From contig DAHXNI010000080.1 of assembly GCA_027365475.1 (NCBI GenBank), positions 5,490 through 69,489 of the forward strand: a DNA stretch of 64,000 bases, read 5' to 3'. The position numbers and the translations under genes were made by a program. Of the stretch, positions 22,017 to 48,974 are shown piece after piece; the stretch's first letter is position 1; each line of letters starts with the position of its first letter. Below the pieces are notes generated by a model. It was not told the DNA's origin, did not search any database, and worked only from the letters and a program-made list of their open reading frames with translations. Source of the stretch: Pseudomonadota bacterium (GTDB taxonomy: Bacteria; Pseudomonadota; Gammaproteobacteria; JAKAQQ01).

Positions 22017-22048
22017 CGGATAGGGCAATTTCCATATTATCGATTGAA

Positions 22049-22091
22049 TGGTAGCGGGGGCAGGATTTGAACCTGTAACCTTCGGGTCATG
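22049..22091 (-). repeat. degenerate copy of the 3' end of tRNA-fMet (distal att site of island element A)
   Basis: tggtagcgggggcaggatttgaacctgtaaccttcgggtcatga: revcomp matches the tRNA 3' end (T-arm, acceptor, CCA) with 3 mismatches. Confidence 0.75.
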
Positions 22092-22375
22092 AAAAAACCT
22101 GGAAAAGGCGAAAATAGATCAATCGGTTACGTACAATATAACTTGTTATTCAATCACTTGGGATCACATCGTTGATCCGGCGATAACCCTGTTTTGGACT
22201 CCGAGTGAACCAAATTTGTCCCACGAAAATGATTCTACTACTCTCGGATCTCTATGGAAAGCGACGCGCCAGTTTCGGTTCTGTGAACCCTGCAACGTAA
22301 TAGGCTACCGGACTCGCGCTCGTGCTGTAACTGTACTGTCCACCACGATCCAAATGGCTCAGAAGGGATAACTTG
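22049..22375. repeat. ~320-bp direct repeat, copy 1 (att plus conserved island-end sequence); copy 2 at 28217-28545
   Basis: The two copies were aligned by eye; they are largely identical, with scattered substitutions and one or two small indels. Confidence 0.8.
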
Positions 22376-22645
22376 AGAAGATGGCAGGCCTCTACCATGC
22401 CTCCCGCTGCGCACTGTGCACAAGTTCTTGAGTCGCACACGCTACCATGGCACCGCCTGCGAACCATCGCTTGAATCCGGTTGGGGTTCACATACGGATA
22501 GATTGCACTTGGTTTTTGAGCGCGCCCTTCGAGTTTCAATCGTTACACTTTACACTCAAATTGTCTCCCAGAAGGATACGAACTTGCCACTGGGTATCGT
22601 TTTTGTTATATTAGATGTGCAATACGTTTCTTTTAGGGGCGCAAG

Positions 22646-23482
22646 TTGAGAGAAAAATATCATTTGCAAACGAAGACACTCGGTCCAAGGGCAGCGCAGC
22701 TCTTCACTGAACTGAATGAACTGCGCCGGAGTGTGTTCACCTTGGCGGATGTGGAATCGATCACCGGCCTGTCGTCGGCATCGGCCCGCAATCTCGTGCA
22801 CAAGGCCCAGCAGCGAGGCTTGGTGACGCGACTGAAGCCTGGCCTGTACAACCTCGTGCCATTCGAACTCGGCCGGGCCACTGAGCACATCGACAGCCCG
22901 TACTTGATCGCGCGCGAACTCGCCGGTGCAGCACCCTACTTCCTATCGCACGGCACCGCGCTTGAGTTGCATCGCATGGTGACGCAGCCGACCTTCACCT
23001 TGTATGTGTCATGCACGCGACGCGTGCGTCCGCAGACGGTGGGCGGCTATGACTTTCGGTTTATCCACATTAAGGCGGAGCAAGCGTTCGGGGTCATGAA
23101 GCACTGGATCGACAAGGAGCGTTTCGTGATGATCAGCGACATGGAGCGCACGATCATCGACGGTCTGCGCCACCCGGCATTTGCCGGTGGCATTACCGAA
23201 GTCGCCAAGGGCTTGTGGATGAAGCGGGACGTACTGAAAGTCGAACGGCTGCTGGACTATGCGTGCCGCTTCGGCGTCGGCGCCGTCGTGCGCCGTCTCG
23301 GCTACCTGCTGGAACACTATGGCCTGGCCGATGCTTCGGTGCTGGAGCTGCTGCGCAGCATGCTGACGGCAACTTACCAGCGCCTTGATCCACTGCTCCC
23401 CGCCGAGGGCGCATTCCTCTCACGTTGGCGGCTCCAGCTCAACGTGACTCCCGAAGAACTGGATGCCGTGAGGCTTGGCTGA
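22646..23482 (+). CDS. AbiEi-type antitoxin / transcriptional regulator (type IV TA)
   Basis: 278 aa; N-terminal wHTH region, C-terminal domain typical of AbiEi; stop overlaps the start of the downstream nucleotidyltransferase (TGATGA). Confidence 0.65.
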   Translation: MREKYHLQTKTLGPRAAQLFTELNELRRSVFTLADVESITGLSSASARNLVHKAQQRGLVTRLKPGLYNLVPFELGRATEHIDSPYLIARELAGAAPYFLSHGTALELHRMVTQPTFTLYVSCTRRVRPQTVGGYDFRFIHIKAEQAFGVMKHWIDKERFVMISDMERTIIDGLRHPAFAGGITEVAKGLWMKRDVLKVERLLDYACRFGVGAVVRRLGYLLEHYGLADASVLELLRSMLTATYQRLDPLLPAEGAFLSRWRLQLNVTPEELDAVRLG

Positions 23483-24324
23483 TGATTCCTCAACGCAACA
23501 TTTCCCTGATCGCGAACACGCTGGTGACCTCTGGAGGGAGGCGCATCCCCGAGGCCGTCATCGAACGCGATTACGTGCTGGCCTGGTTCCTGACCGGTTT
23601 GTCCGGTCATCCGTTACGCGAGGTGCTGGCCTTCAAAGGTGGCACAGCCCTGCGACGCTGCTGGTTCGAGGATTATCGGTTTTCGGAAGACCTGGACTTC
23701 ACGCTGACCCGTCCGATCACCCTTGAAGATATCCTCGCTGGGTTGGGAGAAGTTTTTGCGGCGATTGAGGCCGCCTGCGGCTTGCGGATCGCTTTCGACC
23801 GCGAAGACCGCCACGGCCACCAGAACAGTCACACGTTTTATCTGCGCTACCAGGGGCCGCTGCCCACCGCGAACGACGTGAAGGTTGATATCGCGATCAA
23901 CGAAGTCCTGTGCTTCCCGCTGCAAGACCGCTCGATTCATCGCACCTACGGCAGCTTTGACGACCTGCCCGAAGGGCCGACCGTGAAGGTCTACGCCATC
24001 GAGGAGATCGTGGTTGAAAAGCTGCTGGCGTTGAGTGACCGAGCGCGTAACGAACCGCGCGACTTGTATGACCTCTGGTATCTGTTCGGTTCTACCGACT
24101 TGCGCGTTGCAGAAATACGCGCCGAACTCGATGCCAAGTTGGCACTACGGCAACGCGTCGTTGCTGGCATGGAGCAGGCAATCGCCGCCAAGGAAGATCG
24201 TCTTCGGCGGCTCTGGGCCGCTCGTCTCGCGCACCAGATGAGCCAATTGCCGCTGTTCGATGATGTCTTTCGGGAAGTGCTGCGTGCCGTTCGCGCTGCC
24301 GACTTGCCGAAGGCGGATGACTGA
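23482..24324 (+). CDS. AbiEii-type nucleotidyltransferase toxin (DUF1814)
   Basis: Start at the ATG for MIPQRNISL; FKGGTALRRCW...RFSEDLDF is the AbiEii/DUF1814 GS...DxD NTase motif; coupled to AbiEi. Confidence 0.75.
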   Translation: MIPQRNISLIANTLVTSGGRRIPEAVIERDYVLAWFLTGLSGHPLREVLAFKGGTALRRCWFEDYRFSEDLDFTLTRPITLEDILAGLGEVFAAIEAACGLRIAFDREDRHGHQNSHTFYLRYQGPLPTANDVKVDIAINEVLCFPLQDRSIHRTYGSFDDLPEGPTVKVYAIEEIVVEKLLALSDRARNEPRDLYDLWYLFGSTDLRVAEIRAELDAKLALRQRVVAGMEQAIAAKEDRLRRLWAARLAHQMSQLPLFDDVFREVLRAVRAADLPKADD

Positions 24325-24632: not shown

Positions 24633-24702
24633 TGTCACGTCTCACCTTTTCGGGGCCACCCTCGTCTCACCTAATCGGGGCCACGCTGCCAGATGATTAT
24701 AT

Positions 24703-25464
24703 TTACGGATTACGCAGCGTGTTGTCAATCTCGCGTGTGGTAATGCGGCCCCTCAGTCGGTAGCTCTGGCCCTGGAAGATGACCGTGTGTGCCTGCTCGA
24801 AGAGGCGGTCGATGGTGGCGTTAGCGAGCACGCTGTTCGGGAAGACCTCGCCCCATTCCTCCACTGCGCGATTGGACGTGAGCACGAGCCCCGAGCTGTA
24901 CTTGTGCCGGTCCATGAGATCGAACACCTCTTCGGCCGTCTCGCGGTTCATGGCGACCGCCGCCCAATCGTCGATGACCCACAGTTTGCAGGACAAGAGG
25001 CGCTTGAAGAACTGATCGAGCGTGCCCTCGCGCTTTGCCGCCGTAATGTGCTCGATCAGCTTCTTGTGCGTGGCGAAGTAGACCCGGTGTCCACGGCGGG
25101 CGGCGCCCATGCCGAGGGCGAGGGCGACATGGGTTTTCCCGATCCCACAGGGACCGAGGAGGAGCGCGATGCCGTGTTCGTCTATGAACTGCAAGGTGGC
25201 GAGTTCGCGGATCTGCAGCTCATCGATCGCGGGATTAAAACTGAAGTCAAACGTCTCGAGCGATGCCGGCTCTGGGAAGCCCGCCTGCTTGAAGCGAAGC
25301 TTCAACGCGTTTTGTTTTCTCGCATCGAGTTCGCGCGTCAGGAGATCCGATAACCAATCGAGGTTCACCGCCTTCGGGTGTTGTAACAACACCGGCTCAA
25401 GCTCGCGTGCGGCGGTCGACAGACGCAGGCTGCGCAGTTGCGTTTTGACCGTTTCGATGTTCAT
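24703..25464 (-). CDS. istB: IS21-family helper ATPase IstB
   Basis: 253 aa; Walker A GPCGIGKTH, Walker B LWVIDDW. Confidence 0.85.
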   Translation of the reverse strand: MNIETVKTQLRSLRLSTAARELEPVLLQHPKAVNLDWLSDLLTRELDARKQNALKLRFKQAGFPEPASLETFDFSFNPAIDELQIRELATLQFIDEHGIALLLGPCGIGKTHVALALGMGAARRGHRVYFATHKKLIEHITAAKREGTLDQFFKRLLSCKLWVIDDWAAVAMNRETAEEVFDLMDRHKYSSGLVLTSNRAVEEWGEVFPNSVLANATIDRLFEQAHTVIFQGQSYRLRGRITTREIDNTLRNP

Positions 25465-25466
25465 GC

Positions 25467-27044
25467 CTCATGCTCCGGGGGTTGGGTGGGACGAAGCGAG
25501 AGCAGGTCGGTGTAGACCGACAGGTCTCGCGTGAACTTGTTTTTCGGGCGCGCCACAGGGGCTGCGTTCACCGCCGTTGCGGCTTGAGCGCGCTGCAGCA
25601 GACTCGCGACCTTGCGATACGAGTAGCACTTCAGGTCGATCGCCGAGCGGCAGGCGGCATGGATGTCGGCGGGCGCGTATTGCTTATCGAGGGAGAGAAT
25701 CCCTCAGACCTTGCGGGTATCGATGAAGCCCTGGCCCTGGGTCAGGAGCATCACGACGAGTGCTTCGACTGCCGGCCCCAATTGCCGTGCCCGCAGGCGG
25801 TAGAGCGACCGATCCGAGAGGGAGCGCTCCCAAGGCTTCAAATGCTCAGGTTTGGTTTGTTTCGAGCGGTAGGGATCGGTCAGCCGTGCATGGGTTTCGA
25901 TCAGGATTCCCCGGTGATAAATGGCCAGGCGCGTCCTCCCGCCGAGCATCAGCACCTCCTCGCCGATGTAGCGCTCCACCACCGAGTAGTAGCGGTTGGC
26001 AAACCGCACATGGCCGTCGCGGCGCACGGTGGCAGTCGCCGTCTCTTCGATCTCGTAGGCCACCGCGGGTAGCGCGCGCAGGTGCTCGCGGTCCCGAGGA
26101 AGATCATCGATCGGTCGGCGTTGCGTCGTACCGTGGCGGCGCGCATTGGCGAGCACCAGTTTGCGATCAAGATAGTCCTGCGACTCCTCGAGACTCACGA
26201 ACTCGCCATGGGCCTCGTAGAGACGGCGCACATACGGCATCAGGCGCTCGACCTTGCCCTTCTTCGCGGGCTCGCGCGGGGGCAGGCATTCGATGGTAAA
26301 CCCGTAATGCGCGGCCAAGCGCTCAAAGGCGGGGTTGAGCAGCGGCTCGAAGCGCGAGGCCTCAAGACAAAAGCACTTCGGGTTGTCGGAGGTCAGCCGC
26401 ACGGGCACGCCAGCGATCTCGCCGAGCATGCTTTCGATGGCCGCGAGCGTGGTGGCGACGTCGTTCCTCCAGACGAGCCGCACCATCAGATAGCGGGAGA
26501 AGCCGAGCACGCCGACGAAGGCCCAGAGCGCGCGCCGGGTGCGGTGCGCGGGATCCGCGACCCGCGCGAGCAATCCCCAGTCGAGAATCAGGGCCTCCCC
26601 GGGCTCGTGCACGATCTCGGGGATCACGCGCTCGCCTTGGGTGCCGCGGGCGAGTTCGGCCAGCGCATGGCGATGCAAGAAGCGGTAGAAGCTGGGGCGC
26701 GTGACGGCAACACCGAGCGTGGCGCCGAGCTCTTCGAAGACAGTGATGGCATGCCAGCCCGCGCGCAACCGCTCCTCGATCCACGCGCCATGGGCACTGA
26801 GGACGGCATCGATGCCCGAACGCGGCTCGGTGCGGCGATCGGCCCGATCGGGGAAGAGTGCCTCGGGGTAGACCGGCAGCGCGCGGCCCGCCAGGTAGCC
26901 GTGCTCGGCGGCGAGCGCCTTGATCTTCTCGAAGCGCCCGTTGCCAATCTTGAGATGTTCTTTAATCCAGCGGCGGCTTTTGCCCGCCACCAATAGCTCT
27001 ACGATCTTTCGGTCCACCAGTCGCCTCCGGGTTAACTGCCTCAT
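25467..27044 (-). pseudogene. istA: IS21-family transposase IstA, interrupted by an in-frame TGA at 25704-25706
   Basis: 446-aa ORF with HTH and DDE domains. A C-terminal ~79 codons (GILSLDKQYAPADIHAACRSAIDLKCYSYRKVASLL...) continue in the same frame after the TGA, down to the istB start. Either a nonsense mutation or a sequencing error. Confidence 0.75.
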
Positions 27045-27124
27045 GCCGCGCTCCCCTTGCTGTAGTAGAAGCGCGCAGCTTAACCATGACCGGACGGGTG
27101 GCCCCGATTAGGTGAGACGGAACA

Positions 27125-28008
27125 GTTCCAGACAGCGCTCCGAAAAGGCGTTCGTGGCGGCCCTGGCCGAGATGTATGGGCAGGGGTCTCCACCCGCAAG
27201 GTCAAGGCGATCACCGAGGAGCTCTGTGGCCACCAGTTTTCCGCGTCCAGCATCAGTGCGATCAACCACAGTCTCGATGCCACACTCACGGAGTTTGCCG
27301 AACGACGCCTCGACGAACCCTACCCCTACCTCATCCTCGATGCCCGTTACGAGAAGGTGCGCGAAGGCGGCGTGATCCGTTCCCAGGCGATCCTGATCGC
27401 GATCGGCATCCACCCGGGCGGCCGTCTGGAAGTCCTGGCGGTGGACGTGGCCCCTCGCGAGAGCGCCTCGAGCTGGAAAGACTTCCTGGTGCGCCTCAGG
27501 GAGCGGGGCCTGCACGGCGTCGAGTTCGTGGTCTCCGACGACCATGCGGGACTCAAGCAGGCCCTCACCGAGGTCCTGACCGGCGCCGCCTGACAGCGGT
27601 GTTACGTCCATTTTTTAAGAAATGCACTCGACTACCTCCCCCGAAGAGCCGATGACGACTGCCTGCAGGAGCTGCGGTGGCTCTATGACCAGCGGGACCT
27701 CACAGAAGCCCAGCGGGATCTCGCCGCGTGGCTGTCCAAGTGGTCTACGAAATACCCAAAACTTGCCAACTGGGTCGAGGACAGCATCGGTGAGACGCTC
27801 ACCTTCTACCGGCTGCCCCGAGCCCACCACAAGCACATGAAGTCGACAAATATGTTGGAGCGCTTAAATGAGGAGATCAAACGCCGCACCCGAGTGGTGC
27901 GGATCTTCCCGAACACCGAGTCCTGTCTACGCCTGGTACGGGCCCTGTGCGTCGAGATCCATGAAGCTTGGCTTGAGGACAACCGCACCTCAACATGGAT
28001 GTGCTGAA
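27125..28008 (+). pseudogene. IS256-family transposase, C-terminal ~290 codons: ~18-bp internal deletion, a frameshift in a G-run (~27165), and a TGG->TGA nonsense at 27590-27592
   Basis: The sequence is spread over different frames. The in-frame TGA sits where the family-conserved Trp of WQRCxVHFxRN is expected. Confidence 0.7.
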
Positions 28009-28098
28009 AGAGCAGCGTCGCGAACGACTTCGGCAGGCCGCCTAATGAAACCGTCCTTCATACCAAAAATGAATTTGCACAACTTGACGTACAGAACC

Positions 28099-28127
28099 GC
28101 TTCCGACTTGCTGCCGAAGGTCGCCAT
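28099..28127 (-). pseudogene. 29-bp remnant of the 5' end of a tyrosine integrase gene (element A integrase, deleted)
   Basis: gcttccgacttgctgccgaaggtcgccATG matches the intact integrase at 48699-48725 plus its start at 48790-48799. The same downstream P-arm-like sequence and att follow. It directly abuts the IS256 right IR. Confidence 0.55.
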
Positions 28128-28216
28128 GGCTGCTCCTCCATTGGCCTCAGTTCGAGCTCAGTGGACCAATAAAGGTCAAGTCATGAGTCGTGGCATGTTA
28201 TAAGTTATTGATTTTG

Positions 28217-28262
28217 TGGTAGCGGGGGCAGGATTTGAACCTGCGACCTTCGGGTTATGAGA
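28217..28262 (-). repeat. exact copy of the 3' 46 nt of tRNA-fMet (att site between island elements A and B)
   Basis: The revcomp gtctcataacccgaaggtcgcaggttcaaatcctgcccccgctacca is identical to the 3' half of the intact tRNA at 48898-48943. Confidence 0.85.
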
Positions 28263-28545
28263 CCTGAAAAAGGCAAAAATAGATCAATCGGTTACGTACG
28301 ATATAACTTGTTATTCAATCACTTGGGATCACATCGTTGACCCGGCGATAACCCTGTTTTAGACTCCGAGTGGACCAAATTTGTCCCAAGAAAATGATTT
28401 TAACACTCTCGGATCTCGTATGGAAATGGACGCGCCAGTTTCGGTTGTGTGAACCCTGCAGCGTAATAGGCGACCGGACTCGCGCTCGTGCTGTAGCTGT
28501 ATGTACACCACGATCCAAGTGGCTCAGAAAGTTTCACTTGAGTCA
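28217..28545. repeat. ~320-bp direct repeat, copy 2 (see 22049-22375)
   Basis: Alignment by eye. Confidence 0.8.
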
Positions 28546-28754: not shown

Positions 28755-30324
<1,570 letters not shown>

Positions 30325-30332
<8 letters not shown>

Positions 30333-30651
30333 GGCTTTCGACATCGAAATTCTGCGCGGAGCCGCGGCACAGGGGCGCCTTCACTGGCACCAGCATGCGT
30401 TGGAGCGCTTTCTGGAGCGCGGGATTTCCCGCGCCGAGATCGTAAGCGCTATCATGAACGGTGAGGTGATCGAGGTCTACCCAACGGATCGCCCGTATCC
30501 GAGTTGTCTCATTCTGTACGTGGAGGCGGAGCCGGTGCACGTGGTGGCCGCCGCCGAGCCTGCCACGCGGATGTGCCATGTCATCACCGCGTACCGGCCG
30601 GACCTTGAGTATTTCGAACCGGATTTCAAGACCAGGAGGAAAAAGTCATGA
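30325..30651 (+). CDS. DUF4258-family protein (putative toxin of a DUF4258/YgiT pair)
   Basis: 108 aa; [30 protein letters not shown]...HVVAA...VITAYRPD fits the DUF4258 pattern. 8-bp overlap with hsdM, 4-bp overlap with the next gene. Confidence 0.6.
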
Positions 30652-30893
30652 GCGAGGACTTCGGGCATTGCCCCCTTTGCGGCGGCGAAAAGCAACCGGG
30701 CACCACGACCTTTGCCGTCGATTTGAAATTCGGCGTCGTGGTGGTCAGGGAAGTTCCCGCGTTCGTCTGCACGAAATGTGGCGATGCGTGGATCGACGAT
30801 CCGGTGGCGGCGAAGCTGGAAGGCATCGTTACGGACGCGCGTCGCAAGCACGCCGTGGTGGAGGTTACGCACTGGCAGCAGGTAGCGGCGTGA
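30648..30893 (+). CDS. YgiT-type zinc-finger protein (MqsA-like antitoxin partner of DUF4258)
   Basis: 81 aa; CPLCGGEK...REVPAFVCTKCGDAW two CxxC pairs, typical YgiT/MqsA N-terminal zinc finger. Confidence 0.65.
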   Translation: MSEDFGHCPLCGGEKQPGTTTFAVDLKFGVVVVREVPAFVCTKCGDAWIDDPVAAKLEGIVTDARRKHAVVEVTHWQQVAA

Positions 30894-31250
30894 GCCGCGA
30901 GGATGCGACCGGCGAGCCGCCGCAAGGCGGCCGACAATGGGCGTGATGATCTGGCGACTCGCTTGCCGGGGCGGTGCGGGATCCCTGTCCGGACGGCGCG
31001 CTGAGCTGCCGGCACACACACGGTCGAGTGACGAGTTCGAGCGCTTGAGGTTTCATGCCGGCGCCTCAAGTTCAAGGCCACAAATTCTGACCTTGAACCG
31101 AATCCCTTGAGCCGAAGTAAAAGCGGCCCGATTTTGGACCATGAGATGAGAAATGAAAACGCGGTGGCTTGCAGTACCGCTTGAACAGCGGTTTGCCGAG
31201 TCTGAAAGGCTGCAAAAGACGATACGAGAAAATCGGCGGAGGTTCTTGTC

Positions 31251-32129
31251 ATGAGTGGTAGCTGGAGTCTGAGTCAGACGACCTTTGCGGAGCTTGACTG
31301 GAAGATGCTTCAAGGTCGACCAGGGCTGGGTTTCTATCGGCTCATAGCGCAGGTTGATCTTACCACCCACGGCAAACAGGTGGGAGAAGAAGTCGCGGTA
31401 ACAAATATTGGTGGTGAACTGTGGATACGCGGAAAGGGCAACCAGGAACACTTCTTGGGTTACCTAAGGCGGCAAGGCACAGAATTCCCCCTTACAACCT
31501 ATCGGCATATATCCAAAGGGAATATCTCACTTGAGATTGAATTGGATGCAAGACGCATTGAAGCATTAGAGCAAATCAGGCTCGGAGGGGACTTATCTTT
31601 CAGGATGAACTTATATGGAGTGGCCTCTGGCGGCCGCGAAAAAAGTTCACAGGAAGTGCAGGCCACACTTCAATACCGGGCCAATCAGAGCACCTGGGCC
31701 GAGATACTTGAGCAGATGGGCTATCGGCAAACGATGCTCTTGGAGATTCCAGTGCCCGGAGACGAGGTCAGCCCACAGTTACAGGAGGCGGTGAAGCATC
31801 TCCAAACTGCGCAGACACATATGCTGCGTGGGCATTTCCGGGACGCGGTCGGTGCATGCCGAGATGTTGTGGAATCGCTGTCTATCACCTTGAGTGACGA
31901 GAAAGACCAATTGCCGGAGGCGATCCAATCTTGGTTCAAAGACACGCGGTCAATGGATAAAAAAGAAAGACTCCGGATCGTTCGGCGGGCGCTCAAGGTA
32001 TTGACCCATCCGGCCCGGCATGCGGACGAGGTCTCGGCTTCGATAGAGTGGGGACCGACGGATGCGAGGACGGTTATTCTTATGGCAGCAGCTTTACTCC
32101 AAATAGCCGCTGAAGAGAAACAATCATAG
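31251..32129 (+). CDS. hypothetical protein (292 aa), no recognisable domain; embedded between the TA pair and hsdS
   Basis: Clean ATG start. Appears AT-richer than its neighbours by eye. The long ORF is not overlapped by a convincing alternative. Confidence 0.5.
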   Translation: MSGSWSLSQTTFAELDWKMLQGRPGLGFYRLIAQVDLTTHGKQVGEEVAVTNIGGELWIRGKGNQEHFLGYLRRQGTEFPLTTYRHISKGNISLEIELDARRIEALEQIRLGGDLSFRMNLYGVASGGREKSSQEVQATLQYRANQSTWAEILEQMGYRQTMLLEIPVPGDEVSPQLQEAVKHLQTAQTHMLRGHFRDAVGACRDVVESLSITLSDEKDQLPEAIQSWFKDTRSMDKKERLRIVRRALKVLTHPARHADEVSASIEWGPTDARTVILMAAALLQIAAEEKQS

Positions 32130-32224
32130 TGTTGATGAACAATGACGGGCAGGAAATTCGCGCACATGCCCAACTTGGCGTGGAGGCACCTGGATATGGA
32201 GAAAATGAGGTCATTGCTCGGAAT

Positions 32225-33520
<1,296 letters not shown>

Positions 33521-33524
<4 letters not shown>

Positions 33525-35083: not shown

Positions 35084-35186
35084 TGGCCTTTCTCGCCAAA
35101 GCTTGCTTGGAAAGCATGCTGTTAGCCAATCGGCTATCCGGCGACCCGCGCATCGCTAACACTGAAAAGAGCATGCCGACACGAAG

Positions 35187-36338: not shown

Positions 36339-36835
36339 GCTACCTGCTTGATGCTAACGTCTTCATCCAGGCCAAGAACCTGCACTATGGACTGGATTTC
36401 TGCCCCGCCTTCTGGGATTGGTTGATCGACAATAACGCGGCTGGTCGTGTGTTCAGTATCGATAAGATCGCGGATGAAATCGCGGCTGGCGCCGACGAAC
36501 TGAACGATTGGGCGCGTGAACAGAGCCATGGCCTGTTTCTACAAACCGGCCCGTCGGTCGCGGCCCAGTTCGGGAAGGTCAGCACTTGGACTATGCAGCA
36601 ACAGTACGAACCGGGAGCTATAAACACCTTTTTGCAGGTAGCTGACTTCTATCTCATTGCCCACGCCCTAGCGTCTGGGCATGTGGTAGTGACTCACGAA
36701 GTGCCAGCCAACTCGGCCAAGCGTGTCAAAATCCCAAATGCATGCATCGGTTTGGGTGTGAAGTTCATGACACCCTATGAAATGCCGCGAACAGAACGTG
36801 CACGATTTGTTCTGAGCAGGGGCAGTGGTCACTGA
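36335..36835 (+). CDS. DUF4411-family protein (PIN-like; usual partner of ImmA/IrrE-HTH proteins)
   Basis: GTG start giving [18 protein letters not shown]..., the characteristic DUF4411 N-terminus. 4-bp overlap upstream, 1-bp overlap with hsdR. Confidence 0.7.
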
Positions 36836-39800
36836 TGAGTTTGTTTTCTGAATCCACCGTCGAATCAGCCGCCCTTGGGTGGCTGGAGTCCCTCGGTTAT
36901 GCCATCCTCAACGGTCCCGATATTGCCATCGGCATGCCGGATGCCGAGCGTAGCGATTACGGCCAAGTGGTGTTGCCGCAGCGGCTGCGCGAAGCCCTAG
37001 CGCGACTTAACCCCGAGCTTCCCGCCGAGGCGCTGGAAGACGCCTTCCGCAAGCTGACGCGGCCGGAGGGTGTTGAGCCAGTGGCGCGCAACCACGGCGT
37101 ACATCGCCTTCTGGTGGAAGGGGTGACGGTCGAATATCGCACCGCTGCTGGTGAGATCCGTGGTGCACAAGCACAGGTAATCGACTGCGATATTCCAGAA
37201 AATAATGACTGGCTCGCGGTCAACCAGTTCACCGTTACCGAAAACAAGCACAATCGGCGGCCGGATGTGGTGCTATTCATCAACGGCCTGCCGCTGGTGC
37301 TGATCGAGTTGAAGAATGCCGCTGACGAAAACGCCACCCTATGGTCGGCTTTTCAGCAGCTCCAGACCTACCAGGCGGAACTTCCCACGCTCTTTGCCTA
37401 TAACGCGCTGCTGGTGATTTCAGACGGTGTCGAGGCGCGCATCGGCACGTTTACCGCCGGACGGGAGTGGTTCAAACCCTGGCGCACGATTGCCGGTGAA
37501 ACGCTGGCCGATCCCAACCTGCCGGAATTGCAGGTGATGCTGGAGGGTGTGTTCAATAAGCGGCGATTGCTCGCTCTTCTGCGGGATTTCATTGTCTTCG
37601 AAGATGAAGGCAGAGGGCGCTTAGTCAAGAAGATGGCGGGCTATCACCAGTTCCACGCCGTGAATGTGGCTGTCGCAGAGACACTCCGAGCGGCGAAACT
37701 GGGGGCAGCCGAAGCCATGGGGCGTTATGAGAGTGGACGCCAACCCGGTGGCGATCCCGGTGATCGGCGCATTGGCGTCGTCTGGCATACCCAGGGCTCC
37801 GGCAAGAGCTTGACCATGGTTTTCTATGCCGGTCGCATTATCCGCGAACCCGCGATGGCGAATCCCACTATTGTGGTCCTCACCGACCGCAACGACTTGG
37901 ACGATCAGCTTTTCGGTACCTTTTCCCGCTGCACCGACATGTTACGCCAGCCGCCGGTACAGGCCGACAGCCGAGCTGATCTCCACGACAAACTCAACGT
38001 GGATGCGGGAGGTGTGGTGTTTACCACTCTCCAGAAGTTCTTCCCCGAAACGAAAGGTGACCGGCACCCGGTGCTTTCAACACGGCATAACATTGTGGTG
38101 ATTGCCGATGAGGCGCATCGTAGTCAGTATGACTTCATTGATGGCTTTGCCCGCCACATGCGAGATGCACTCCCCCATGCCTCCTTCATCGGCTTTACCG
38201 GCACCCCGATCGAGCAAACCGATGCCAATACCCGGGCAGTGTTCGGCGATTACATCAGCATTTATGATATCCAGCGGGCGGTTGAAGACCGGGCGACCGT
38301 ACCGATTTACTACGAGAGCCGCCTTGCCAAGCTCAATCTCAATGAAGCGGAAAAGCCGACCATCGACGCTTCCTTCGAGGAAGTCACCGAGGGCGAGGAA
38401 GTGGACCGCAAGGAAAAACTCAAGAGCAGGTGGGCGCAGCTTGAAGCTGTGGTCGGCGCGGAGACGCGTCTCAAGCGAATTGCTGAGGATATCGTCTCCC
38501 ATTTCGAGGCACGACAGGAGGCCATCGACGGCAAGGCGATGATTGTGTGCATGAGCCGGCGTATCTGCCTGGATCTCCACGATGAGATCAAGAAACTGCG
38601 CCCGTCCTGGATTCACGCCGATGATGATAAGGGTTTGATGAAGGTAGTCATGACTGGCAACGCCTCGGAAGGTCCCCGGGTGGCTGAACACGCGCGTAAT
38701 AAGGCACGGCGCGAAGACTTGGCCAATCGCTTTCGGGATGCCGGGGACCCCCTGAAACTCGTCATCGTCCGGGACATGTGGCTCACAGGCTTCGATGCCC
38801 CGAGCCTTCATACCATGTATCTCGACAAGCCCATGCGCAACCATGGGCTGATGCAGACCATCGCGCGGGTAAACCGGGTATTCAAGAACAAACCTGGCGG
38901 ACTGGTTGTGGATTATCTGGGACTGGCGCCGGCACTCAAGGCGGCGCTCGCCACCTACACGGAAAGCGGCGGTACGGGCCGGACCGCTATTGACCAGAAA
39001 GAAGCCATCGCGGTCATGCAGGAGAAATACGAGATCTGCACCGGACTGCTGCATGGTTTCGATTGGTCCCGGTGGAGTTCGGGTACCCCACAAGAGCGCT
39101 TAGCGCTGCTACCGGCCGCCCAAGAACATCTCCTCAAACAAGAGGACGGTAAAACCCGTTGGCTTCAAGCTGTGCAGGCATTGTCTCAAGCTTTTGCCCT
39201 CGCGGTTCCGAGTGCCGAGGCCCTCGATATCCGCGATGATGTGGCATTCTTCCAGGCCTTGAGGGCAAGTCTTGCCAAGCGTGCACCGGGAGAAGCGAGC
39301 TCGGAAGAAGATCTCGACCAAGCGGTTCGCCAGATCGTCTCCCGGGCGGTGGCTTCGGAAGGCATCCTGGATATTTTCGCTGCGGCGGGTTTGAAAAAAC
39401 CCGATCTCTCGATCCTCTCCGAAGAGTTCCTGGCAGAGGTACGCGGCATGCCCCAGAAGAATCTGGCGGTTGAATTGTTGCGCAAGCTTCTGGACGGTGA
39501 GATCCGCACCAGCGGTCGCAAGAATATAGTGCAGGCCCGGACTTTCTCAGAGATGCTGGAGAAAACCCTGCATCGCTACCAGAGTCGGGCGATCGAAGCC
39601 GCCCAGGTCATCGAGGAACTCATTGATCTGGCCCGGGATATCCGGGAGGCCCAGGCGCGGGGCGAACAACTGGGATTGACGGACGATGAGATTGCGTTCT
39701 ACGATGCGCTGGAAACCAATGACAGCGCAGTGAAGGTGTTGGGCGAGCCGACGCTCAAAGACATTGCCCGGGAACTGGTCAAGACTGTGCGCAGCAATGT

Positions 39801-39966
39801 CACCATTGACTGGACGCTGCGGGAAAATGTCCGCGCTAAACTGCGCGTCTCGGTCAAGCGCATCTTGCGCGAGTACGGCTATCCGCCGGATAAGCAGGAA
39901 AAAGCCACACAGACTGTTCTTGAACAGGCAGAACTCTTATCCGGCCAATGGGCTGAGGTCTCATGA
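36835..39966 (+). CDS. hsdR: Type I restriction enzyme, endonuclease/helicase subunit HsdR
   Basis: 1043 aa; N-terminal nuclease domain, SF2 helicase motifs ([10 protein letters not shown]; [15 protein letters not shown] box), C-terminal HsdR_C. Confidence 0.9.
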
Positions 39967-42356: not shown

Positions 42357-42416
42357 ACCCGGGAGCCATCGCCCCTATCATCAATGGTGAATCCACTCCA
42401 TTCGAGGTTCACCTCC

Positions 42417-42473
42417 ATGAAACAGCTCATCGACATCGACACACTCTCCGAAACCCTCGCCATCCCCAACCGG
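42417..42473 (+). pseudogene. AlpA-like (phage transcriptional regulator) gene, 5' fragment cut by an IS insertion
   Basis: MKQLIDIDTLSETLAIPNR: the 'LS..L.I' start of the AlpA HTH, truncated at the IS left end. Confidence 0.4.
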
Positions 42474-44534
42474 GGTTTAACAAGTAGCAAAAAATATGTT
42501 TCCCATTCAAGTTGTTACGATTTCAAGAATCGAGTGTGCGTTACCAACGCCTCAACGTGGTATCAAACGACCAGTTTCTTGGTCTCCCCCGGCTTCGGAC
42601 CAAGCCCCAAGGCCTGGTAAATCGCCTGGAGTTCGGGTTCGGCCACCGTGCTCTGGCGCACATGCAGCGTGCGCCCATCGCGGCGGCGAACGCTGGCCGT
42701 GACACGGCGCTGAACCGATAAGATCTCGCGCAGGCTCGACCAGCTCTCGTGGATGCCCTTTTCCTTCAGTGGGCGCCGCAGGGTCTGCACCACTTGATAG
42801 GCGAGCACGCTGATGAACAGATGCCCATCGGTGCGCGCTTCCTTGTGATGATAGACCGGCCGCAGGCCGAGCTCCGACTTCAGGCTGCGAATCACCGCCT
42901 CCAGGTCGGTCAGCATGATATAGGTGTGCCACAACCGCGCCTCGTCCCAGTGGGTTTCATTGGTGCGAAGACAATAGACGCCGGGGTGGGTAAGGAGCGT
43001 GCCCTCGATTGGCTGTTTCACCCAAGTGAGCGAGGCCGCTTGCTCACCGCTCTCATCGGGCGTCAAGGCAATGAGGTAATGCTGTCCCACGCGGCTTCGC
43101 TCCTTCAGTCGTCCAATGCGTTCCTGGAGCTTCGAGATGCGTTTTTCACCGCGGGGTTTGTCGAGTCCCTCGGCCATGGCCTTCAGCCCGGTCTCGAGCC
43201 GCGCACACAGCCGCCGCGCGATCGCCGACTCCTTCGCTTGGCGTCCCGTGGAGTAGCAATGCAGTTGCACCTCGCTGCCATCCGCGCTGGTTACCTTCTG
43301 GATCTGGAGGGTCTCGTGGCTCGCCGTCTCGATCGCGATGGCAGGGGCCGCCTCGAAGTGGCGCGTGCGCTTGCGGCTGACGACGAGATAGCGATACCCG
43401 CAGGCGACGAGCCAGGCGAGGTTCGCCTCACTCGCGATACCGGCATCCATCACGATGAGACAGCCGCGGGGAGCGCCCAGCCCCGCCAGCATCGCTTCGA
43501 GCGTTTTGACCTCCGCGGCATTGCCGGCAAAGGTCTGGGAGCGGCGAATAAAGCCGCTGCCATCGAGTACGAGCCCGAGCGTCACGAGCGGACAATCACT
43601 TCGTTTTTCCTTGGAACGCCCGCGGGCAGCCTGGGGATTGGCGGCGGCGGTGCCTTCAAAATACGTATTCGTGAGATCGTAGAGCGTTACCGTGGTCTCT
43701 AGCCCAAAGAGATCGCGGACGTTCTCAAAGAGCTTGGATTCGATCGTGGCGCGGTATTTGATGAGCCGATCCGATGCCCGATAGAGCGCCATCATCGACA
43801 TCGCCTCGAAATCGACTTCCATCAATTCACCCAAACCACTCGTCATCGTGAGCCAGCGCCAGGTGGCCAGTTCCGAGCCCGGTTGGGCCAGGCGTCCGAT
43901 CACGTTGGCCAGGGCGGCGTTCTTTAATTTACCATTGAAGCCACACTCGGTGAGGATCGCCTCCAGCCCCAGTTGCTTCATGGCATGCCAGGCGACGTAC
44001 TCGACACCGATCGAGCGCGGACGCACCTGCTCGAGCGAGTCGAGGGCGACCTCCGCAAACACCGGGGGCGCGGTGGCGGAGGCTACCGCGGCAGGGGTTG
44101 GCGCGCGCACCACCAACCGCGCCGCATAGCGTTGCGCCAGGCGCTCGAGGCGCGGGCCCAAGGGCACGGCCGAGAGCGATGTCTGGGCGGAGAGAATCTG
44201 CTCGAGGCGGGCACAGAGCGCGGGCCAATGCTTGGGGGCCACGCCAAAATCCCGCCCGAGATTGAGCCGCGCCACCTGGCGGACACTCTTTCCGTGTCGT
44301 TCGCTGCTCACCAGGCGATAAGTGACGTAGGACTCCCCATTCAGTTTGCTGCGCGTGGCGGTGCGGCGGATGAACATGCACGCACGCTACACACCCGCGG
44401 TGCCCGGGACAAGGGGGTCAATGAAATATTATGGCACTACAAACGGCCCGCGCGAACCGGGTGGTCGAAACATCAATACGTTACCTTCGCCAAGGGGGTC
44501 GAGAAGGCATGTTTTGGAAGGGGAAGTGTTAAAG
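42474..44534 (-). mobile_element. IS1634-family (IS4 superfamily) insertion sequence, ~2.06 kb, flanked by ACCGG on both sides
   Basis: Imperfect terminal IRs (GGTTTAACAAG.. / ..CTTTAACAC); single 604-aa transposase; ACCGG at 42469-42473 and 44535-44539. The exact ends are uncertain. Confidence 0.6.
42563..44377 (-). CDS. IS1634/IS4-family DDE transposase
   Basis: 604 aa; the size and the MFIRRTATRSKLNGESYVTYRLV... N-terminus are typical of IS1634-group transposases. Confidence 0.7.
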   Translation of the reverse strand: MFIRRTATRSKLNGESYVTYRLVSSERHGKSVRQVARLNLGRDFGVAPKHWPALCARLEQILSAQTSLSAVPLGPRLERLAQRYAARLVVRAPTPAAVASATAPPVFAEVALDSLEQVRPRSIGVEYVAWHAMKQLGLEAILTECGFNGKLKNAALANVIGRLAQPGSELATWRWLTMTSGLGELMEVDFEAMSMMALYRASDRLIKYRATIESKLFENVRDLFGLETTVTLYDLTNTYFEGTAAANPQAARGRSKEKRSDCPLVTLGLVLDGSGFIRRSQTFAGNAAEVKTLEAMLAGLGAPRGCLIVMDAGIASEANLAWLVACGYRYLVVSRKRTRHFEAAPAIAIETASHETLQIQKVTSADGSEVQLHCYSTGRQAKESAIARRLCARLETGLKAMAEGLDKPRGEKRISKLQERIGRLKERSRVGQHYLIALTPDESGEQAASLTWVKQPIEGTLLTHPGVYCLRTNETHWDEARLWHTYIMLTDLEAVIRSLKSELGLRPVYHHKEARTDGHLFISVLAYQVVQTLRRPLKEKGIHESWSSLREILSVQRRVTASVRRRDGRTLHVRQSTVAEPELQAIYQALGLGPKPGETKKLVV

Positions 44535-44538
44535 ACCG

Positions 44539-44766
44539 GCCAAGGGATCCATCCGCAACGCGCTCTGGCGCGGACAGGGCGGCATCAACATCCCGAATCC
44601 TATCCGCATCGGCCGCTGCCTGCGCTGGGATACCGAATCTGTCGACCAGTGGATCGCGGGCAAGTCCACAGAGCCATCATCCGCCCGGGGGAAACGCCGG
44701 AAAAGACCGGATGCGCTTCCGGCCCGACCATACAGTCTGTCGGGAAAACCCGGTGCTGAGACGTGA
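44539..44766 (+). pseudogene. AlpA-like regulator, 3' portion (HTH recognition helix and C-terminus)
   Basis: AKGSIRNALWRGQGGINIPNPIRIGRCLRWDTESVDQWIAGKS matches the Phage_AlpA pattern (P.PI.IG.R.VRW...EV..WI). Confidence 0.55.
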
Positions 44767-45506: not shown

Positions 45507-45776
45507 ATGAAAACCACCACCATCCCGCCGCTGCGTGTATCCCCCGCGCTTCGCAAACAAGCCGAAGCGGTTCTGGAGCAGGGAGAGACGCTCTCCGGCT
45601 TCGTGCTCGAGGCCCTAAACCGAAACATTGAGTACCGCAAGGCGAGACAGGAGTTTCTTGCGCGCGGGTTAGCCAGCGCCGCGATCGCCAAAAAATCCGG
45701 GAAATATGTCCCGGCCGATCGGGTGATCGAGAAACTTGCGCGCAAACTGGTAAAAGTCAAACAACGCTTGGCCTAG
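45507..45776 (+). CDS. parD: ParD-family RHH antitoxin
   Basis: MKTTTIPPLRVSPALRKQAEAVLEQGETLSGFVLEAL (ribbon-helix-helix) ... RQEFLARGLASAAIAKKSGKYVPADRVIEKL, a ParD-like C-terminus. Start chosen at the second ATG with a GGAGAC RBS. Confidence 0.6.
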   Translation: MKTTTIPPLRVSPALRKQAEAVLEQGETLSGFVLEALNRNIEYRKARQEFLARGLASAAIAKKSGKYVPADRVIEKLARKLVKVKQRLA

Positions 45777-45780
45777 CCCA

Positions 45781-46083
45781 GTGAAACGCTATAAGGTTCG
45801 CTTCACGCCGGAGGCGGAAGACGATTTGCTGCGTCTCTATGAGTTTTTGCTGGAAAAGGACTTGGCGGCGGCCGAACGCGCTTTGGAGGCAATCCAAGGG
45901 GCCGTTGAATTACTGCGTTTCTCACCATTCTCTTGCCGCAAGGCACTCACCCGCAATCCTTTTCTGAGAGAACTCATTATTCCTTTCGGGTCCGCAGGAT
46001 ACGTGGCATTGTTTGAAATTGAGTCAGTAAACACGATAAACATCCTGGCCGTTCGGCACCAGCGCGAGGAGGATTACCAGTGA
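45781..46083 (+). CDS. parE: ParE/RelE-family toxin
   Basis: GTG start; YKVRFTPEAEDDLLRLYEFL...ELIIPFGSAGYVALFEIES..INILAVRHQREEDY is the ParE fold signature; 4 nt downstream of parD. Confidence 0.75.
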   Translation: MKRYKVRFTPEAEDDLLRLYEFLLEKDLAAAERALEAIQGAVELLRFSPFSCRKALTRNPFLRELIIPFGSAGYVALFEIESVNTINILAVRHQREEDYQ

Positions 46084-46203
46084 GAGGAGTCGACTCCCTA
46101 CGAAAGATGCCCAACGGCTGCTTCCAGGTACATACCCCTAAAGGCAGCACGCGGCCAGAAGCGGACGTTGAGCGATTCAATAGCACGATGATAGGGCGTC
46201 CTC

Positions 46204-46746
46204 ATGCGTAATTACGTAGCGCTGTTCCGCGGTATCAACGTGATGGGTAGCAATTCGCTACCGATGAAGGAGCTTGCTGCGCTTCTACAGCGTGAAGGCC
46301 TTAGCGACGTGCGCACTTACATCCAAAGCGGCAACGCTCTATTTCGCAGCGCGGCCGGAAGCGCGCATTTGTTGGCCAGTCGCATTGGCCGTGCGGTATA
46401 CGAGGCAAAGGGTTTTCATCCAAAGGTCGTTGTACTGAACGTAAGGGAGCTGGAAAGAGCAGCGTCGAACAATCCGTTTCCAAAGGCTGAAGACCAACCT
46501 CAGACGTTGCATCTATTTTTCCTTTCCGAAGTCCCGTTCCGTGCGGATCTGATATCGCTCGGCCGCCTGAGGTCCGACAGGGAAGCGTTCGCACTCAAGG
46601 GTAAGGTCTTCTATCTGCATACGCCGGACGGATTTGCCGTATCGAAGGTGTGCGCACAAGTGGAACGGCATGTTCATGTGGACGCGACGGCACGCAACTG
46701 GAATACCGTAACAAAGCTCCTGGAGATGGCGAACGCGGTCGAATGA
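46204..46746 (+). CDS. DUF1697-family protein
   Basis: MRNYVALFRGINVMGSNSLPMKELAALLQREGLSDVRTYIQSGNALF matches the DUF1697 N-terminal consensus. Confidence 0.7.
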   Translation: MRNYVALFRGINVMGSNSLPMKELAALLQREGLSDVRTYIQSGNALFRSAAGSAHLLASRIGRAVYEAKGFHPKVVVLNVRELERAASNNPFPKAEDQPQTLHLFFLSEVPFRADLISLGRLRSDREAFALKGKVFYLHTPDGFAVSKVCAQVERHVHVDATARNWNTVTKLLEMANAVE

Positions 46747-47770
46747 CTTCTCCGGGTCGAAAGTGTGAGTAGGCATTTTCGACAAGCGGTCATACCGGCT
46801 AAAGTCCAGTAAAATGTTTTGTCGGCAACGTTCGAACGGCTGCAACGCGCAGAGAAGCGGTCGACCATATTGTGAGCCCTCGATGACCGCACAGGCCGAG
46901 TAGCAGACCTTCATGGCCATCACTCTGACTGGCTGTTCCTGGCACGAGGCTGCCATTGGCCAACGGGTTGCAGTAGCTTTCATCGCGCCATTCAGCAGAC
47001 CACCATTTATCCATTTTCAGCCAAACTTGCCCATGCCGTTCTGCCCCTCGCAATATGCGAGCCATGGCATGCCTGAATCCTATTCAGCCCGGGCGCTCGG
47101 CATCTGAAAACACATATCCCTGAAGCAGGCAGGCACCCTCCACCCTCTGAGCGGAACTTTTCGCCTATCACGGCAGCATCACGGCTATATGCACGCTTGA
47201 TATCAGCAAATCTGCTTATGCAATACCCTCCTAAAGTATGTTTATGTAGTGTGCCACCTCGCTTTCCACCTCAGCTTTTATACTTATGTATTCGAGAAAC
47301 AGGGCCATATGCTTGCAAAGCACAGTTTCGGCATAACGTTTGGCATGCGCATAAAATAAAACGCATAAAATCAGGCTCAGGGCAACGCAATTTATGCACA
47401 GTGAGTCTTGGGGCTACTTGGCAATAGATTGCTTGGTTTTTGAGTGCGACGTGACACTGCAGTCAAAATTTTCGTCGCATGGTTCAACGTCCACGGGATG
47501 GACCGTTATGTCACCTGAGATCGGAGACCAGCTCGCTGGAATGGCGCAGAGATCTCGGCCAGGATCCCAGGGAGGTTCCGGACCCGCCGTACGGACTTGC
47601 AGAGCTCCTTGGGCATCGCACACCCATCAAGCGGGCGCGAGAATCGTTCGCTCCGCTTTGCTCGTGGTAAACCAGTCAGTCACACCTTCAGACCAACCGA
47701 AGACACGCCGGTTATGGCCAATCCAGTACACCTTAGGGCCGTACTCCGGCCCGACAGCCTGTTCCACTGG

Positions 47771-48799
47771 TCAACCCAGTCTCTTGGCGAGATCCTCGGC
47801 CCGGAGATGGGTATAGCGCTTCAGCATCTCAAGCGTCTTGTGTCCGGTGATGGCCGCAACCTCCATCGGATTGAACCCTTTCTCGAAGAGCCGGCTCGTG
47901 GCTTCATGCCGGAGATCATGGAATCTGAGATCCACCATCGGCTCGAGCGCCTGTGAGCTTTGGCTCTTCTTGCCCATCGCAGCCCGTGCCGTGATCCGTG
48001 CGAATGCCTGGCTGATCGCATCTGCCGTCATCCCGAACACCGAGCCATCAAGCCTCCGGGGCAGCCCCTTGAGCACCTCGAGCGCCCGGCTCGAGAGCGG
48101 CACATCCCGCCTCTCCCCGTTCTTCGTCTCCTCGAGATGGATGACCCGATTCCCCCAGTCCACCTGTTCCCAACGCATCCCTGCAATTTCTCCCCGCCGC
48201 ATGGCCGTTTCCAGGGCGAGCACGATAATCGGCCCGATCATCCCCCCATAGGCCTTGGCACGGGCCAATAGCTCATCACCCTCCCCCGGCTCAAGTCTCC
48301 GTTTCCGTCCGGGCGGAAGCTTGGGACGCGCCGCGCGTGCCAGGGCAACCGGGTTCTGGAGGCTTTCCATGCCCCACGAGGTCCGGGCGAGTTCGAAGAC
48401 ACGGGAGATGATACCGAGGTCGAGCTTGATCGTGTGCGGGTTCATGCCTTCCATCTCGCGCTCGTGAATGAATCCGGCAATGTCCTTCCCGCGAATGCCG
48501 GCGAGCTTACGCAGGGCAAGTGGTCGCTTCTCAATGGCACGGGCCCGGTAGGTGGCCATCTTCCGGCCCTTAAGCCTTGGCACGTACTCGGTCACGAAAC
48601 GCTCCAGCGCCTCGGCAAGTGTCGTCTCCTCCGCCTCGGTGCGCGAGAGAAAGATTCCCCGGCCCATTTCGGACTCGATGCCGTGTGCCCAAGCTGCCGC
48701 TTCCGACTTGCTTCCGAAGGTCGCCGTCTCGACCGGATACCCACGCCGCCGGACGCGCACCCGCCACTGCCCCGATTTCCGCCGTTCGAATGTCGCCAT
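47771..48799 (-). CDS. int: Tyrosine-type site-specific integrase (phage integrase family) of the tRNA-fMet island
   Basis: 342 aa; catalytic R...HxLRH...Y motifs (RRGEIAGMRWEQV; HDLRHEATSRL; LKRYTHL); start 98 bp from the tRNA 3' end. Confidence 0.9.
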   Translation of the reverse strand: MATFERRKSGQWRVRVRRRGYPVETATFGSKSEAAAWAHGIESEMGRGIFLSRTEAEETTLAEALERFVTEYVPRLKGRKMATYRARAIEKRPLALRKLAGIRGKDIAGFIHEREMEGMNPHTIKLDLGIISRVFELARTSWGMESLQNPVALARAARPKLPPGRKRRLEPGEGDELLARAKAYGGMIGPIIVLALETAMRRGEIAGMRWEQVDWGNRVIHLEETKNGERRDVPLSSRALEVLKGLPRRLDGSVFGMTADAISQAFARITARAAMGKKSQSSQALEPMVDLRFHDLRHEATSRLFEKGFNPMEVAAITGHKTLEMLKRYTHLRAEDLAKRLG

Positions 48800-48897
48800 G
48801 GCTGCTCCTCCATTGGCCTCAGTTCGAGCTCAGTGGACCAAATTTGGACCAAAAGGTCAAGTCATGGGTCGTGACAGTTTCTATCTTATTGATTTTG

Positions 48898-48974
48898 TGG
48901 TAGCGGGGGCAGGATTTGAACCTGCGACCTTCGGGTTATGAGCCCGACGAGCTGCCAGACTGCTCCACCCCGCA
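48898..48974 (-). tRNA. tRNA-fMet (initiator, anticodon CAT), intact; integration target of the island
   Basis: The revcomp (T)GCGGGGTGGAGCAGTCTGGCAGCTCGTCGGGCTCATAACCCGAAGGTCGCAGGTTCAAATCCTGCCCCCGCTACCA folds as a cloverleaf. It has three G-C pairs in the anticodon stem and an unpaired 1:72 position, both hallmarks of bacterial initiator tRNA. The encoded CCA is present. Confidence 0.9.

Follow-up and report, generated by a model that had tools for sequence, protein, structure and literature searches.

Features of the locus

The window, by which we mean the whole 64,000-nucleotide stretch of contig DAHXNI010000080.1 analyzed here, contains two related integrase-type elements arranged head-to-tail at the initiator tRNA (tRNA-fMet) gene of an uncultured gammaproteobacterium, as the initial annotation had proposed. 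Three copies of the attachment (att) sequence and paired arms that are 90% and 84% identical delimit the elements. The arrangement is likely to be the product of tandem accretion, in which related islands were inserted site-specifically into the 3' half of the tRNA gene. Element 1 adjoins the tRNA, spans 28262-48897 (20,636 bp) and retains its integrase and both arms intact. Element 2 lies on its far side and spans 22094-28216 (6,123 bp). The features that define both elements are, in order of increasing distance from the tRNA:

48898..48974, minus strand: intact initiator tRNA-Met(CAT) (ARAGORN, Rfam 64.4 bits, sequence features)
48898..48942, minus strand: att copy 1, the regenerated target, tRNA 3' 45 nt from the anticodon loop to CCA (sequence comparison)
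48800..48897, minus strand: integrase-side (P') arm of element 1, the tRNA-integrase spacer (motif search, related spacers)
47771..48799, minus strand: element 1 integrase (int1), 342 aa, a lambda-Int-like tyrosine recombinase (Pfam PF00589, alignment, AlphaFold2 (AF2), Foldseek)
28262..28542, minus strand: putative distal (P) arm of element 1, non-coding, with the dyad TTGGGACAAATTTGGTCC at 28372-28387
28217..28261, minus strand: att copy 2, a displaced tRNA 3' fragment, 45/45 against the tRNA (sequence comparison)
28099..28216, minus strand: integrase-side arm of element 2 and the first 10 integrase codons (MATFGSKSEA) (sequence comparison)
22094..22377, minus strand: putative distal (P) arm of element 2, with the dyad at 22207-22222 carrying one mismatch
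22049..22093, minus strand: att copy 3, a degenerate tRNA 3' fragment, 41/45, exact over the 27 nt nearest the CCA end
22012..22048, minus strand: 37 nt resembling the integrase-side arm (24/37 against the element 1 arm, ungapped, anchored at the CCA end)

ARAGORN identifies two tRNA genes in the window, one of which is the tRNA-Met(CAT) gene at 48898-48974 on the minus strand (Rfam RF00005, 64.4 bits). The unpaired 1:72 position (U1/U72), the GGG/CCC anticodon stem and A11 identify this tRNA as the initiator. Its mismatch is U1/U72 instead of the C1/A72 of E. coli, and the same or a near-identical initiator sequence is found downstream of nuoN in several other gammaproteobacterial lineages. 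The intact tRNA is indeed followed by an integrase, as first annotated, and this PF00589 gene starts 98 nt past the tRNA 3' end.

Attachment copies and direct repeats

All three att copies are in direct orientation, and the displaced fragments bound the islands, as in the islands catalogued by Islander. The first base of the anticodon loop (CTCATAA) is exactly where the 45-nt block of identity starts; Islander names such blocks the anticodon-centered class and counts 2083 of its 3919 islands in it (PMC4383910). A 25-nt att probe, with up to three mismatches allowed, matches at these three places only (chance expectation 0). Self-BLAST of the whole window, a comparison suggested by the initial annotation, returns only four repeat pairs, all of them at the three att sites:

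28205-28542 against 22037-22377, 89.8% over 342 nt
48787-48942 against 28115-28261, 89% (tRNA-integrase spacer)
48875-48941 against 22026-22092, 85%
48697-48725 against 28097-28125, 96.6% (integrase start)

The second and fourth pairs bear out the claim that the tRNA-integrase spacer and the integrase 5' end recur at 28099-28216. Other dimensions given initially require adjustment. The recurrence reported at 28217-28262 is exact, but its length is 45 nt rather than 46, as position 28262 mismatches. The degenerate copy is present and matches at 41/45 positions, though it extends over 22049-22093 instead of 22049-22091. Similarly, the repeat said to follow each copy is real after the two partial ones (28262-28542 against 22094-22377, 258/285 identical or ~90%, non-coding), but it measures ~285 bp and not ~320 bp.

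The repeat copies have diverged by ~10%, and the repeats are therefore not an assembly artifact produced by a collapsed duplication, a concern that the initial annotation had raised. The same divergence bears on a different explanation, in which replication slippage or homologous recombination duplicated an att-plus-arm segment locally inside one island. Duplication can produce direct repeats of a few hundred base pairs, but the middle copy is accompanied by a second integrase start with its own arm, which duplication of a distal end would not make. According to self-BLAST, elements 1 and 2 also have no sequence in common besides the arm/att regions. Nor is the integrase remnant of element 2 a recent copy of int1: it lacks a further 24 codons that int1 has, its arm is 84% identical, and no second copy of int1 is detected in the window by tblastn. 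We consider local duplication extremely improbable.

Architecture of the attachment arms

In the integrase-side arm of element 1, the family motif AAATCAATAAG comes right after CCA, and TTTGGTCC is present as two direct repeats with a spacing of 11 nt (48835-48850); this tRNA-integrase spacer also includes TTTGGTCCAAATTTGGTCC. The corresponding arm of element 2 is 84% identical and has lost one TTTGGTCC repeat through a 9-nt deletion. The window has matches to the pattern GGACCAAATTTGKNCC at 22207, 28372 and 48835 and nowhere else, which confines the pattern to the three att regions (chance expectation 0.01). Judged by these sequences, the ~285-bp repeats appear to be the distal attP arms, which share a motif with the tRNA-integrase spacer. 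Candidate arm-type sites, distinct from the core, would then be present on both attP arms, where the integrase is expected to bind them. A coding or known-RNA role of the arms was considered and dropped, because the two copies share no conserved open reading frame (ORF) and match no Rfam family.

Related loci display comparable features. Among 12 spacers of related integrases that were compared, most hold two to three direct copies of an 8-9-nt motif ~11 nt apart, and the sequence of this motif changes from integrase to integrase. The AAATCAATAAG motif is found immediately 3' of CCA in several of the loci, and it is element-borne in five other loci, including ones at tRNA-Arg and at another tRNA-Met.

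The element 1 integrase and its family

The catalytic R-K-H-R-H/W-Y set of int1 is complete, and its residues R201, K226, H294, R297, H320, and Y329 are invariant across 31 homologues. The AF2 model, generated from a 31-sequence alignment, has a mean predicted local distance difference test (pLDDT) score of 84.5. At the N-terminus, the model predicts β-strands at residues 2-6, 12-16 and 24-28 and an α-helix at residues 31-47, with pLDDT of ~87-91. Foldseek aligns the model with full-length lambda Int (1z1b, E 1e-10, 350 columns). The three-stranded sheet and helix are thus predicted to form an arm-binding domain. The presence of the motif on both arms, its variation with the integrase, the lambda-Int-like fold and the invariant catalytic residues together point to a heterobivalent-integrase architecture.

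For comparison, 56 loci of related integrases were taken from metagenomes. Approximately 25 of the integrases have a tRNA gene 100-200 bp upstream on the same strand, and more than 12 tRNA species are represented. Target switching appears to be frequent in this family, which numbers 7622 database proteins at E<=1e-20. No att repeats are found downstream of the related integrases within flanks of up to ~11 kb, and consequently the limits of other elements in the family could not be set. When plasmids were searched with the integrase region, the only matches were to tRNA genes. Integrases that are 40-82% identical to int1 adjoin genes for tRNA-Arg (four anticodons), Leu (three), Thr, His, Ala, Cys, Phe, Ser, Lys, SeC, and Met. 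At 82% identity, the nearest of these has tRNA-Arg(CCT), and not tRNA-fMet, as its target.

Element 2 and the trace beyond it

In addition to its arms, element 2 consists only of the following:

27125..28098, plus strand: right part of an IS256-family (Transposase_mut) insertion sequence (IS) remnant, whose left part is at ~24443-24632
24633..27124, minus strand: IS21-family element inside the IS256 remnant, with istA at 25704-27044 and istB at 24703-25464 (Pfam, NCBIfam)
22646..24324, plus strand: AbiEi/AbiEii type IV toxin-antitoxin (abortive infection) pair (Pfam PF13338, PF08843)

The proposal that the tRNA-distal element has no integrase is sound. Ten codons are left, and the frame is broken after the tenth, at ~28098, by the IS256-family remnant. 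When the IS256 frame is rejoined in silico without IS21, it matches PF00872 Transposase_mut with E 3e-118. Terminal inverted repeats bound the IS21 element, and its target duplication is GTTCCAG. Element 2 had also been described as riddled with IS elements; it is IS-broken, but by just one IS21 nested in one IS256-family remnant, and element 1 carries an IS of its own (IS1634).

The far att copy is followed by the 37 nt at 22012-22048, whose score against the integrase-side arm is reached by only 3 of 127,926 37-mers of the window. These nucleotides are probably the last trace of a third, older, nearly erased element. This assignment is based on their arm-like sequence and position directly after the far att, on the element-borne nature of AAATCAATAAG at other loci, and on the dissimilarity of empty sites: genomes of the latter kind have terminator hairpins downstream of the tRNA, quite unlike 22012-22048.

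Decay grows with distance from the tRNA. The integrase is intact in element 1, reduced to 10 codons in element 2 and absent from the third remnant, while the att match falls from 45/45 to 41/45. The arm motifs are complete in element 1; element 2 is one copy short and has one mismatch in its distal dyad.

The target site and its neighborhood

The other end of the disrupted region is marked by genes that adjoin the tRNA elsewhere:

12138..12704, minus strand: rimP, then nusA (rimP directly follows tRNA-fMet in five related genomes)

Five distant gammaproteobacterial genomes, fetched via NuoN, share the order nuoN, tRNA-fMet, rimP, nusA. In tblastn comparisons with these five relatives, the matched rimP region starts 17-171 bp past the tRNA, and in one it overlaps the tRNA. 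The distance from rimP to the tRNA in the window is 36.2 kb. Since rimP directly follows tRNA-fMet in these genomes, it marks the likely ancestral neighbor of the tRNA. The gene order recalls the metY-rimP-nusA-infB operon of E. coli.

The stretch between rimP and the far att copy (12.7-22.0 kb) encodes an abhydrolase, OsmC, a rubrerythrin-VIT1 protein and NrtR-NadA-NadB, together with a weak DUF772 transposase trace, and may be older acquired DNA. Sensitive BLAST finds no fourth att or arm copy near rimP. The flanking abhydrolase has only one moderately similar homologue (72% identity), which sits in an unrelated context. The gap upstream of rimP (12705-13445) has no gene call; it includes the trace of a DUF772-type transposase N-terminus at ~13100-13230, which is weak (E 0.004, below the Pfam threshold).

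Assembly support and strain comparison

The window matches the Joint Genome Institute (JGI) metagenome contig Ga0257086_100039, and several parts of it are reproduced elsewhere. The left junction, comprising the abhydrolase, the far att, the arm and AbiE, is present in two independent Logan assemblies (SRR36271373 and SRR36271343, 99.97%). The metagenome-assembled genome (MAG) GCA_054609815.1 reproduces nuoN, the tRNA and the integrase 5' end (99.97%), and element 1 DNA is present in two MAGs. Each of the four contigs with an identical abhydrolase has the element 2 arm beside that gene, and none has the element 1 arm there.

The two elements differ in how closely they match other strains. Between the window and the MAG, element 1 has 142 differing positions in 6.3 kb (2.3%), patchily distributed, compared with 4 across the neighboring 12 kb of nuo genes; evolution or recombination proceeds at a much higher rate in the island than in the core. 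Element 2 with the left junction has 3-4 differences over 12-13.7 kb (element 2 plus core) in two other assemblies, and is as close as the core. Independent acquisition of element 1 in the MAG strain was considered and dropped, because the 2.3% divergence is patchy and not uniform.

Strains differ in the IS elements that these islands carry. In the MAG, an AT-rich element with CCGAACTTTCG ends lies within int1 (window 48569-48576), and a GTAACT...-ended sequence is present at 40234 inside the gene for a TIR-domain protein. A similar GTAACT... sequence abuts position 24442 in a Logan assembly.

Accretion and its alternatives

The history that we favor, and consider likely, is one of tandem accretion, with related islands integrating site-specifically, one after another, at the 3' half of the initiator tRNA gene. 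The attP of each element would consist of a ~285-bp distal arm, a 45-nt tRNA copy (anticodon loop to CCA) and a 98-nt integrase-side arm, followed by the integrase gene. Crossover in the anticodon-loop region would split the tRNA gene, upon which the element's own 45 nt would rebuild it and the old 3' fragment would move to the far end of the element. Repeats of this event at the regenerated tRNA would stack elements, with the newest adjoining the tRNA. Element 2 would have lost its integrase by IS256-family insertion and deletion, with IS21 coming later, and would now be an att-flanked integrase-less remnant; the third element would have been reduced to 37 nt of arm. In principle, int1 could still excise element 1 alone, and could excise the composite or element 2 in cis, less efficiently. 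Element 1 appears complete for integrase-mediated excision, except for a recognizable excisionase, and may be mobile at present.

Several observations weigh against this reading. The middle junction (28099-28542) and all of ~24.4-40.2 kb are found only in the single JGI metagenome contig. When a second assembly over this junction was sought with exact-protein look-ups (HsdM, the 45-aa integrase remnant and a 167-aa ORF), that contig alone was returned. No empty site in close relatives is present among the NuoN matches listed, in which the nearest NuoN is 48-50% identical. The interval from the tRNA to rimP is occupied in three other lineages by 4-8 kb of ordinary genes with no integrase among them, and hence the 12.7-22.0 kb stretch need not be an island. 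Mobilization of element 2 in cis may no longer work, because the middle arm is one motif copy short and the far core has 4 mismatches. Finally, the small ORFs scanned for an excisionase give no Xis/AlpA-type match, although such proteins are short and easily missed.

The confinement of the middle junction to one metagenome contig, which the window matches, would also fit an assembly chimera in which a strain with element 1 and a strain with element 2 were joined through their shared att. It agrees with this explanation that other assemblies end at the att and arm repeats. The longest exact stretch that the middle junction shares with the tRNA junction is 57 nt, however, and with the far junction 40 nt; both would be short to mislead an assembler working, as is usual, with large k-mers. 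The middle junction also has its own versions of the arms, ~10-16% diverged, which shows that it is not a splice of the outer junctions. Moreover, a chimera would have to accommodate the identical abhydrolase, which adjoins the element 2 arm, and not the element 1 arm, in all four contigs. We regard a chimera as very unlikely.

Somewhat less improbable, yet still unlikely, is that the composite arrived in one piece: accretion would have taken place in an earlier host, with the 27 kb excised via the outer att sites and integrated here once. Transfer of composite tandems of cis-mobilizable elements (CIMEs) and integrative and conjugative elements (ICEs) has been observed in other systems (review PMC5704250), and here the att sites and the arms at both outer ends can still be recognized. 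In contrast, the third arm remnant at the far att is more easily explained by stepwise stacking in place. The match of the far core (41/45) relative to that of the middle core (45/45) suggests different ages at this site, and the near-core divergence of element 2 with the left junction, set against that of element 1 between strains, argues in the same direction. Stepwise accretion at the present site therefore remains the preferred history.

A wider reading strikes us as possible, though doubtful. The integrases would form a large uncharacterized family always located just downstream of a tRNA, with core and arm specificity evolving as separable modules; the locus would comprise three nested generations from one lineage; and int1 might move its decayed neighbor in cis. 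If this were true, the family would provide a natural series for studying the retargeting of tyrosine integrases, and the locus would record repeated use of one site by one lineage.

Cargo of element 1

Between its arms, element 1 carries the following, in addition to int1:

28755..39966, plus strand: type I restriction-modification (R-M) operon with guest genes (Pfam, PADLOC), made up of the next nine entries
28755-30332, plus strand: hsdM
30325-30651, plus strand: DUF4258
30648-30893, plus strand: 81-aa ORF, no family match
31251-32129, plus strand: 292-aa ORF, no family match
32235-33524, plus strand: hsdS
33521-35083, plus strand: AbiP2-type reverse transcriptase (PADLOC E 4e-204)
35187-36338, plus strand: M78 (ImmA/IrrE) peptidase
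36335-36835, plus strand: DUF4411 protein
36835-39966, plus strand: hsdR
40128-40880, minus strand: TIR-domain protein (PADLOC PDC-S35, Pfam CAP12-PCTIR_TIR)
41385-42356, plus strand: 323-aa protein of unknown function, in common with a related tRNA-Arg element
42470..44539, minus strand: IS1634-family insertion sequence, 2070 bp, with its transposase at 42563-44377 (NCBIfam NF033559, E 2.5e-83)
45507..46746, plus strand: putative antitoxin of 89 aa, ParE toxin (45781-46083) and DUF1697 protein (46204-46746) (Pfam, gene calls)

Defense genes had been expected as cargo, and Pfam and PADLOC detect them. Taken together, the two elements hold a type I R-M system, an AbiP2 reverse transcriptase, a PDC-S35 TIR protein and AbiE, which is the content of a defense island. 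A search of the ORFs of 22-49 kb with Pfam, NCBIfam and PADLOC finds no relaxase, coupling protein, type IV secretion system or origin-of-transfer (oriT) module; proteins of 292, 323 and 168 aa in this set have no family. With no conjugation or mobilization genes found in either, the elements are plain integrative islands, and not ICEs or integrative and mobilizable elements (IMEs).

The R-M operon is a nested multi-system defense operon, in which the AbiP2 reverse transcriptase, the M78 peptidase and the DUF4411 protein are located between hsdS and hsdR, and DUF4258 with its 81-aa partner follows hsdM. The 323-aa protein has no family match; its gene shows 74% nucleotide identity with the tRNA-Arg element (locus L093, 3321-4204) and may belong to the core set of the island family. 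The limits of IS1634 are set by the contig of MAG GCA_054609815.1, which joins 44540 to 42469, so that IS1634 is absent there at the exact point. No gene is called in the ~1 kb at the integrase 3' end (46747-47770), where three TTATGC(G) repeats lie close together. Nowhere else do the window and the MAG copy of element 1 vary as much (38 differences in 250 bp, indels of 4-15 nt); the region may be what is left of a gene, or may have a regulatory or origin-like role.

Comparison with known systems

Tandem tRNA islands and integrase-less cis-mobilizable remnants are already well documented, and the present case fits that scheme. The 3919 islands of Islander include 125 tandems with at least two members and 4 with at least three (PMC4383910; Hudson, Lau and Williams 2015). 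As in those tandems, an intact tRNA gene is accompanied by displaced direct 3' fragments, a tyrosine integrase lies by the regenerated tRNA gene, and the block of identity is anticodon-centered. In a strict Islander tandem each member has its own integrase, whereas here only element 1 has one; the locus falls outside that definition because element 2 lacks an integrase. The setting also differs from the catalogue in its initiator tRNA target and its uncultured gammaproteobacterial host.

Element 2 resembles the CIMEs related to ICESt1/ICESt3 of Streptococcus thermophilus. As these are presented in review PMC5704250, which cites Pavlovic 2004 and Bellanger 2011, integration was followed by decay to a CIME and by arrival of a related element at the same target, giving a tandem with three att sites. 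The same three-step history is proposed here. The content of element 2 (AbiEi/AbiEii, IS21 and the IS256 remnant only) is that of a CIME, and its attL and attR are recognizable, with one of two motif copies lost from the integrase-side arm, one mismatch in the distal dyad and a far core of 41/45. Unlike ICESt1/ICESt3, element 1 has no conjugation or mobilization genes that we could find and is not an ICE, and the newcomer lies on the tRNA side.

The ssrA islands of Dehalococcoides are likewise found in tandem downstream of a single-copy essential RNA gene, whose 3' end recurs as direct repeats at their boundaries; some of these islands are without integration modules and have been proposed to be cis-mobilizable (McMurdie 2011, PMC3146451). 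Tandem islands bounded by repeats of an RNA gene 3' end, with an integrase-less member, are common to both systems. The Dehalococcoides islands rely on a serine recombinase, with a 20-bp repeat and crossover in the T-loop, and their cargo is dehalogenase genes, whereas the locus described here has a tyrosine integrase, a 45-nt repeat and defense cargo.

With lambda Int and its attP, int1 shares a full-length structural match that includes the N-terminal sheet-plus-helix of the predicted model, and short repeated motifs lie on both arms around the core. It differs in its sequence (22% identity), its tRNA gene target and the lack of a detected Xis. Binding of int1 to the arm motifs would be the expected parallel.

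Knowledge of how islands form is unchanged by this locus, which is instead a clean, fully delimited example of the growth and decay of a defense island at a tRNA hotspot. A complete element, an IS-wrecked remnant and a nearly erased trace stand in age order, and the arm-site architecture can be read from sequence alone. The locus should be of use for annotation and teaching, and as an entry to a widespread, unstudied family of tRNA-targeting integrases. Relative to the systems above, what it adds is the three-generation gradient, together with a large uncharacterized integrase family that has varying tRNA targets and matching arm motifs.

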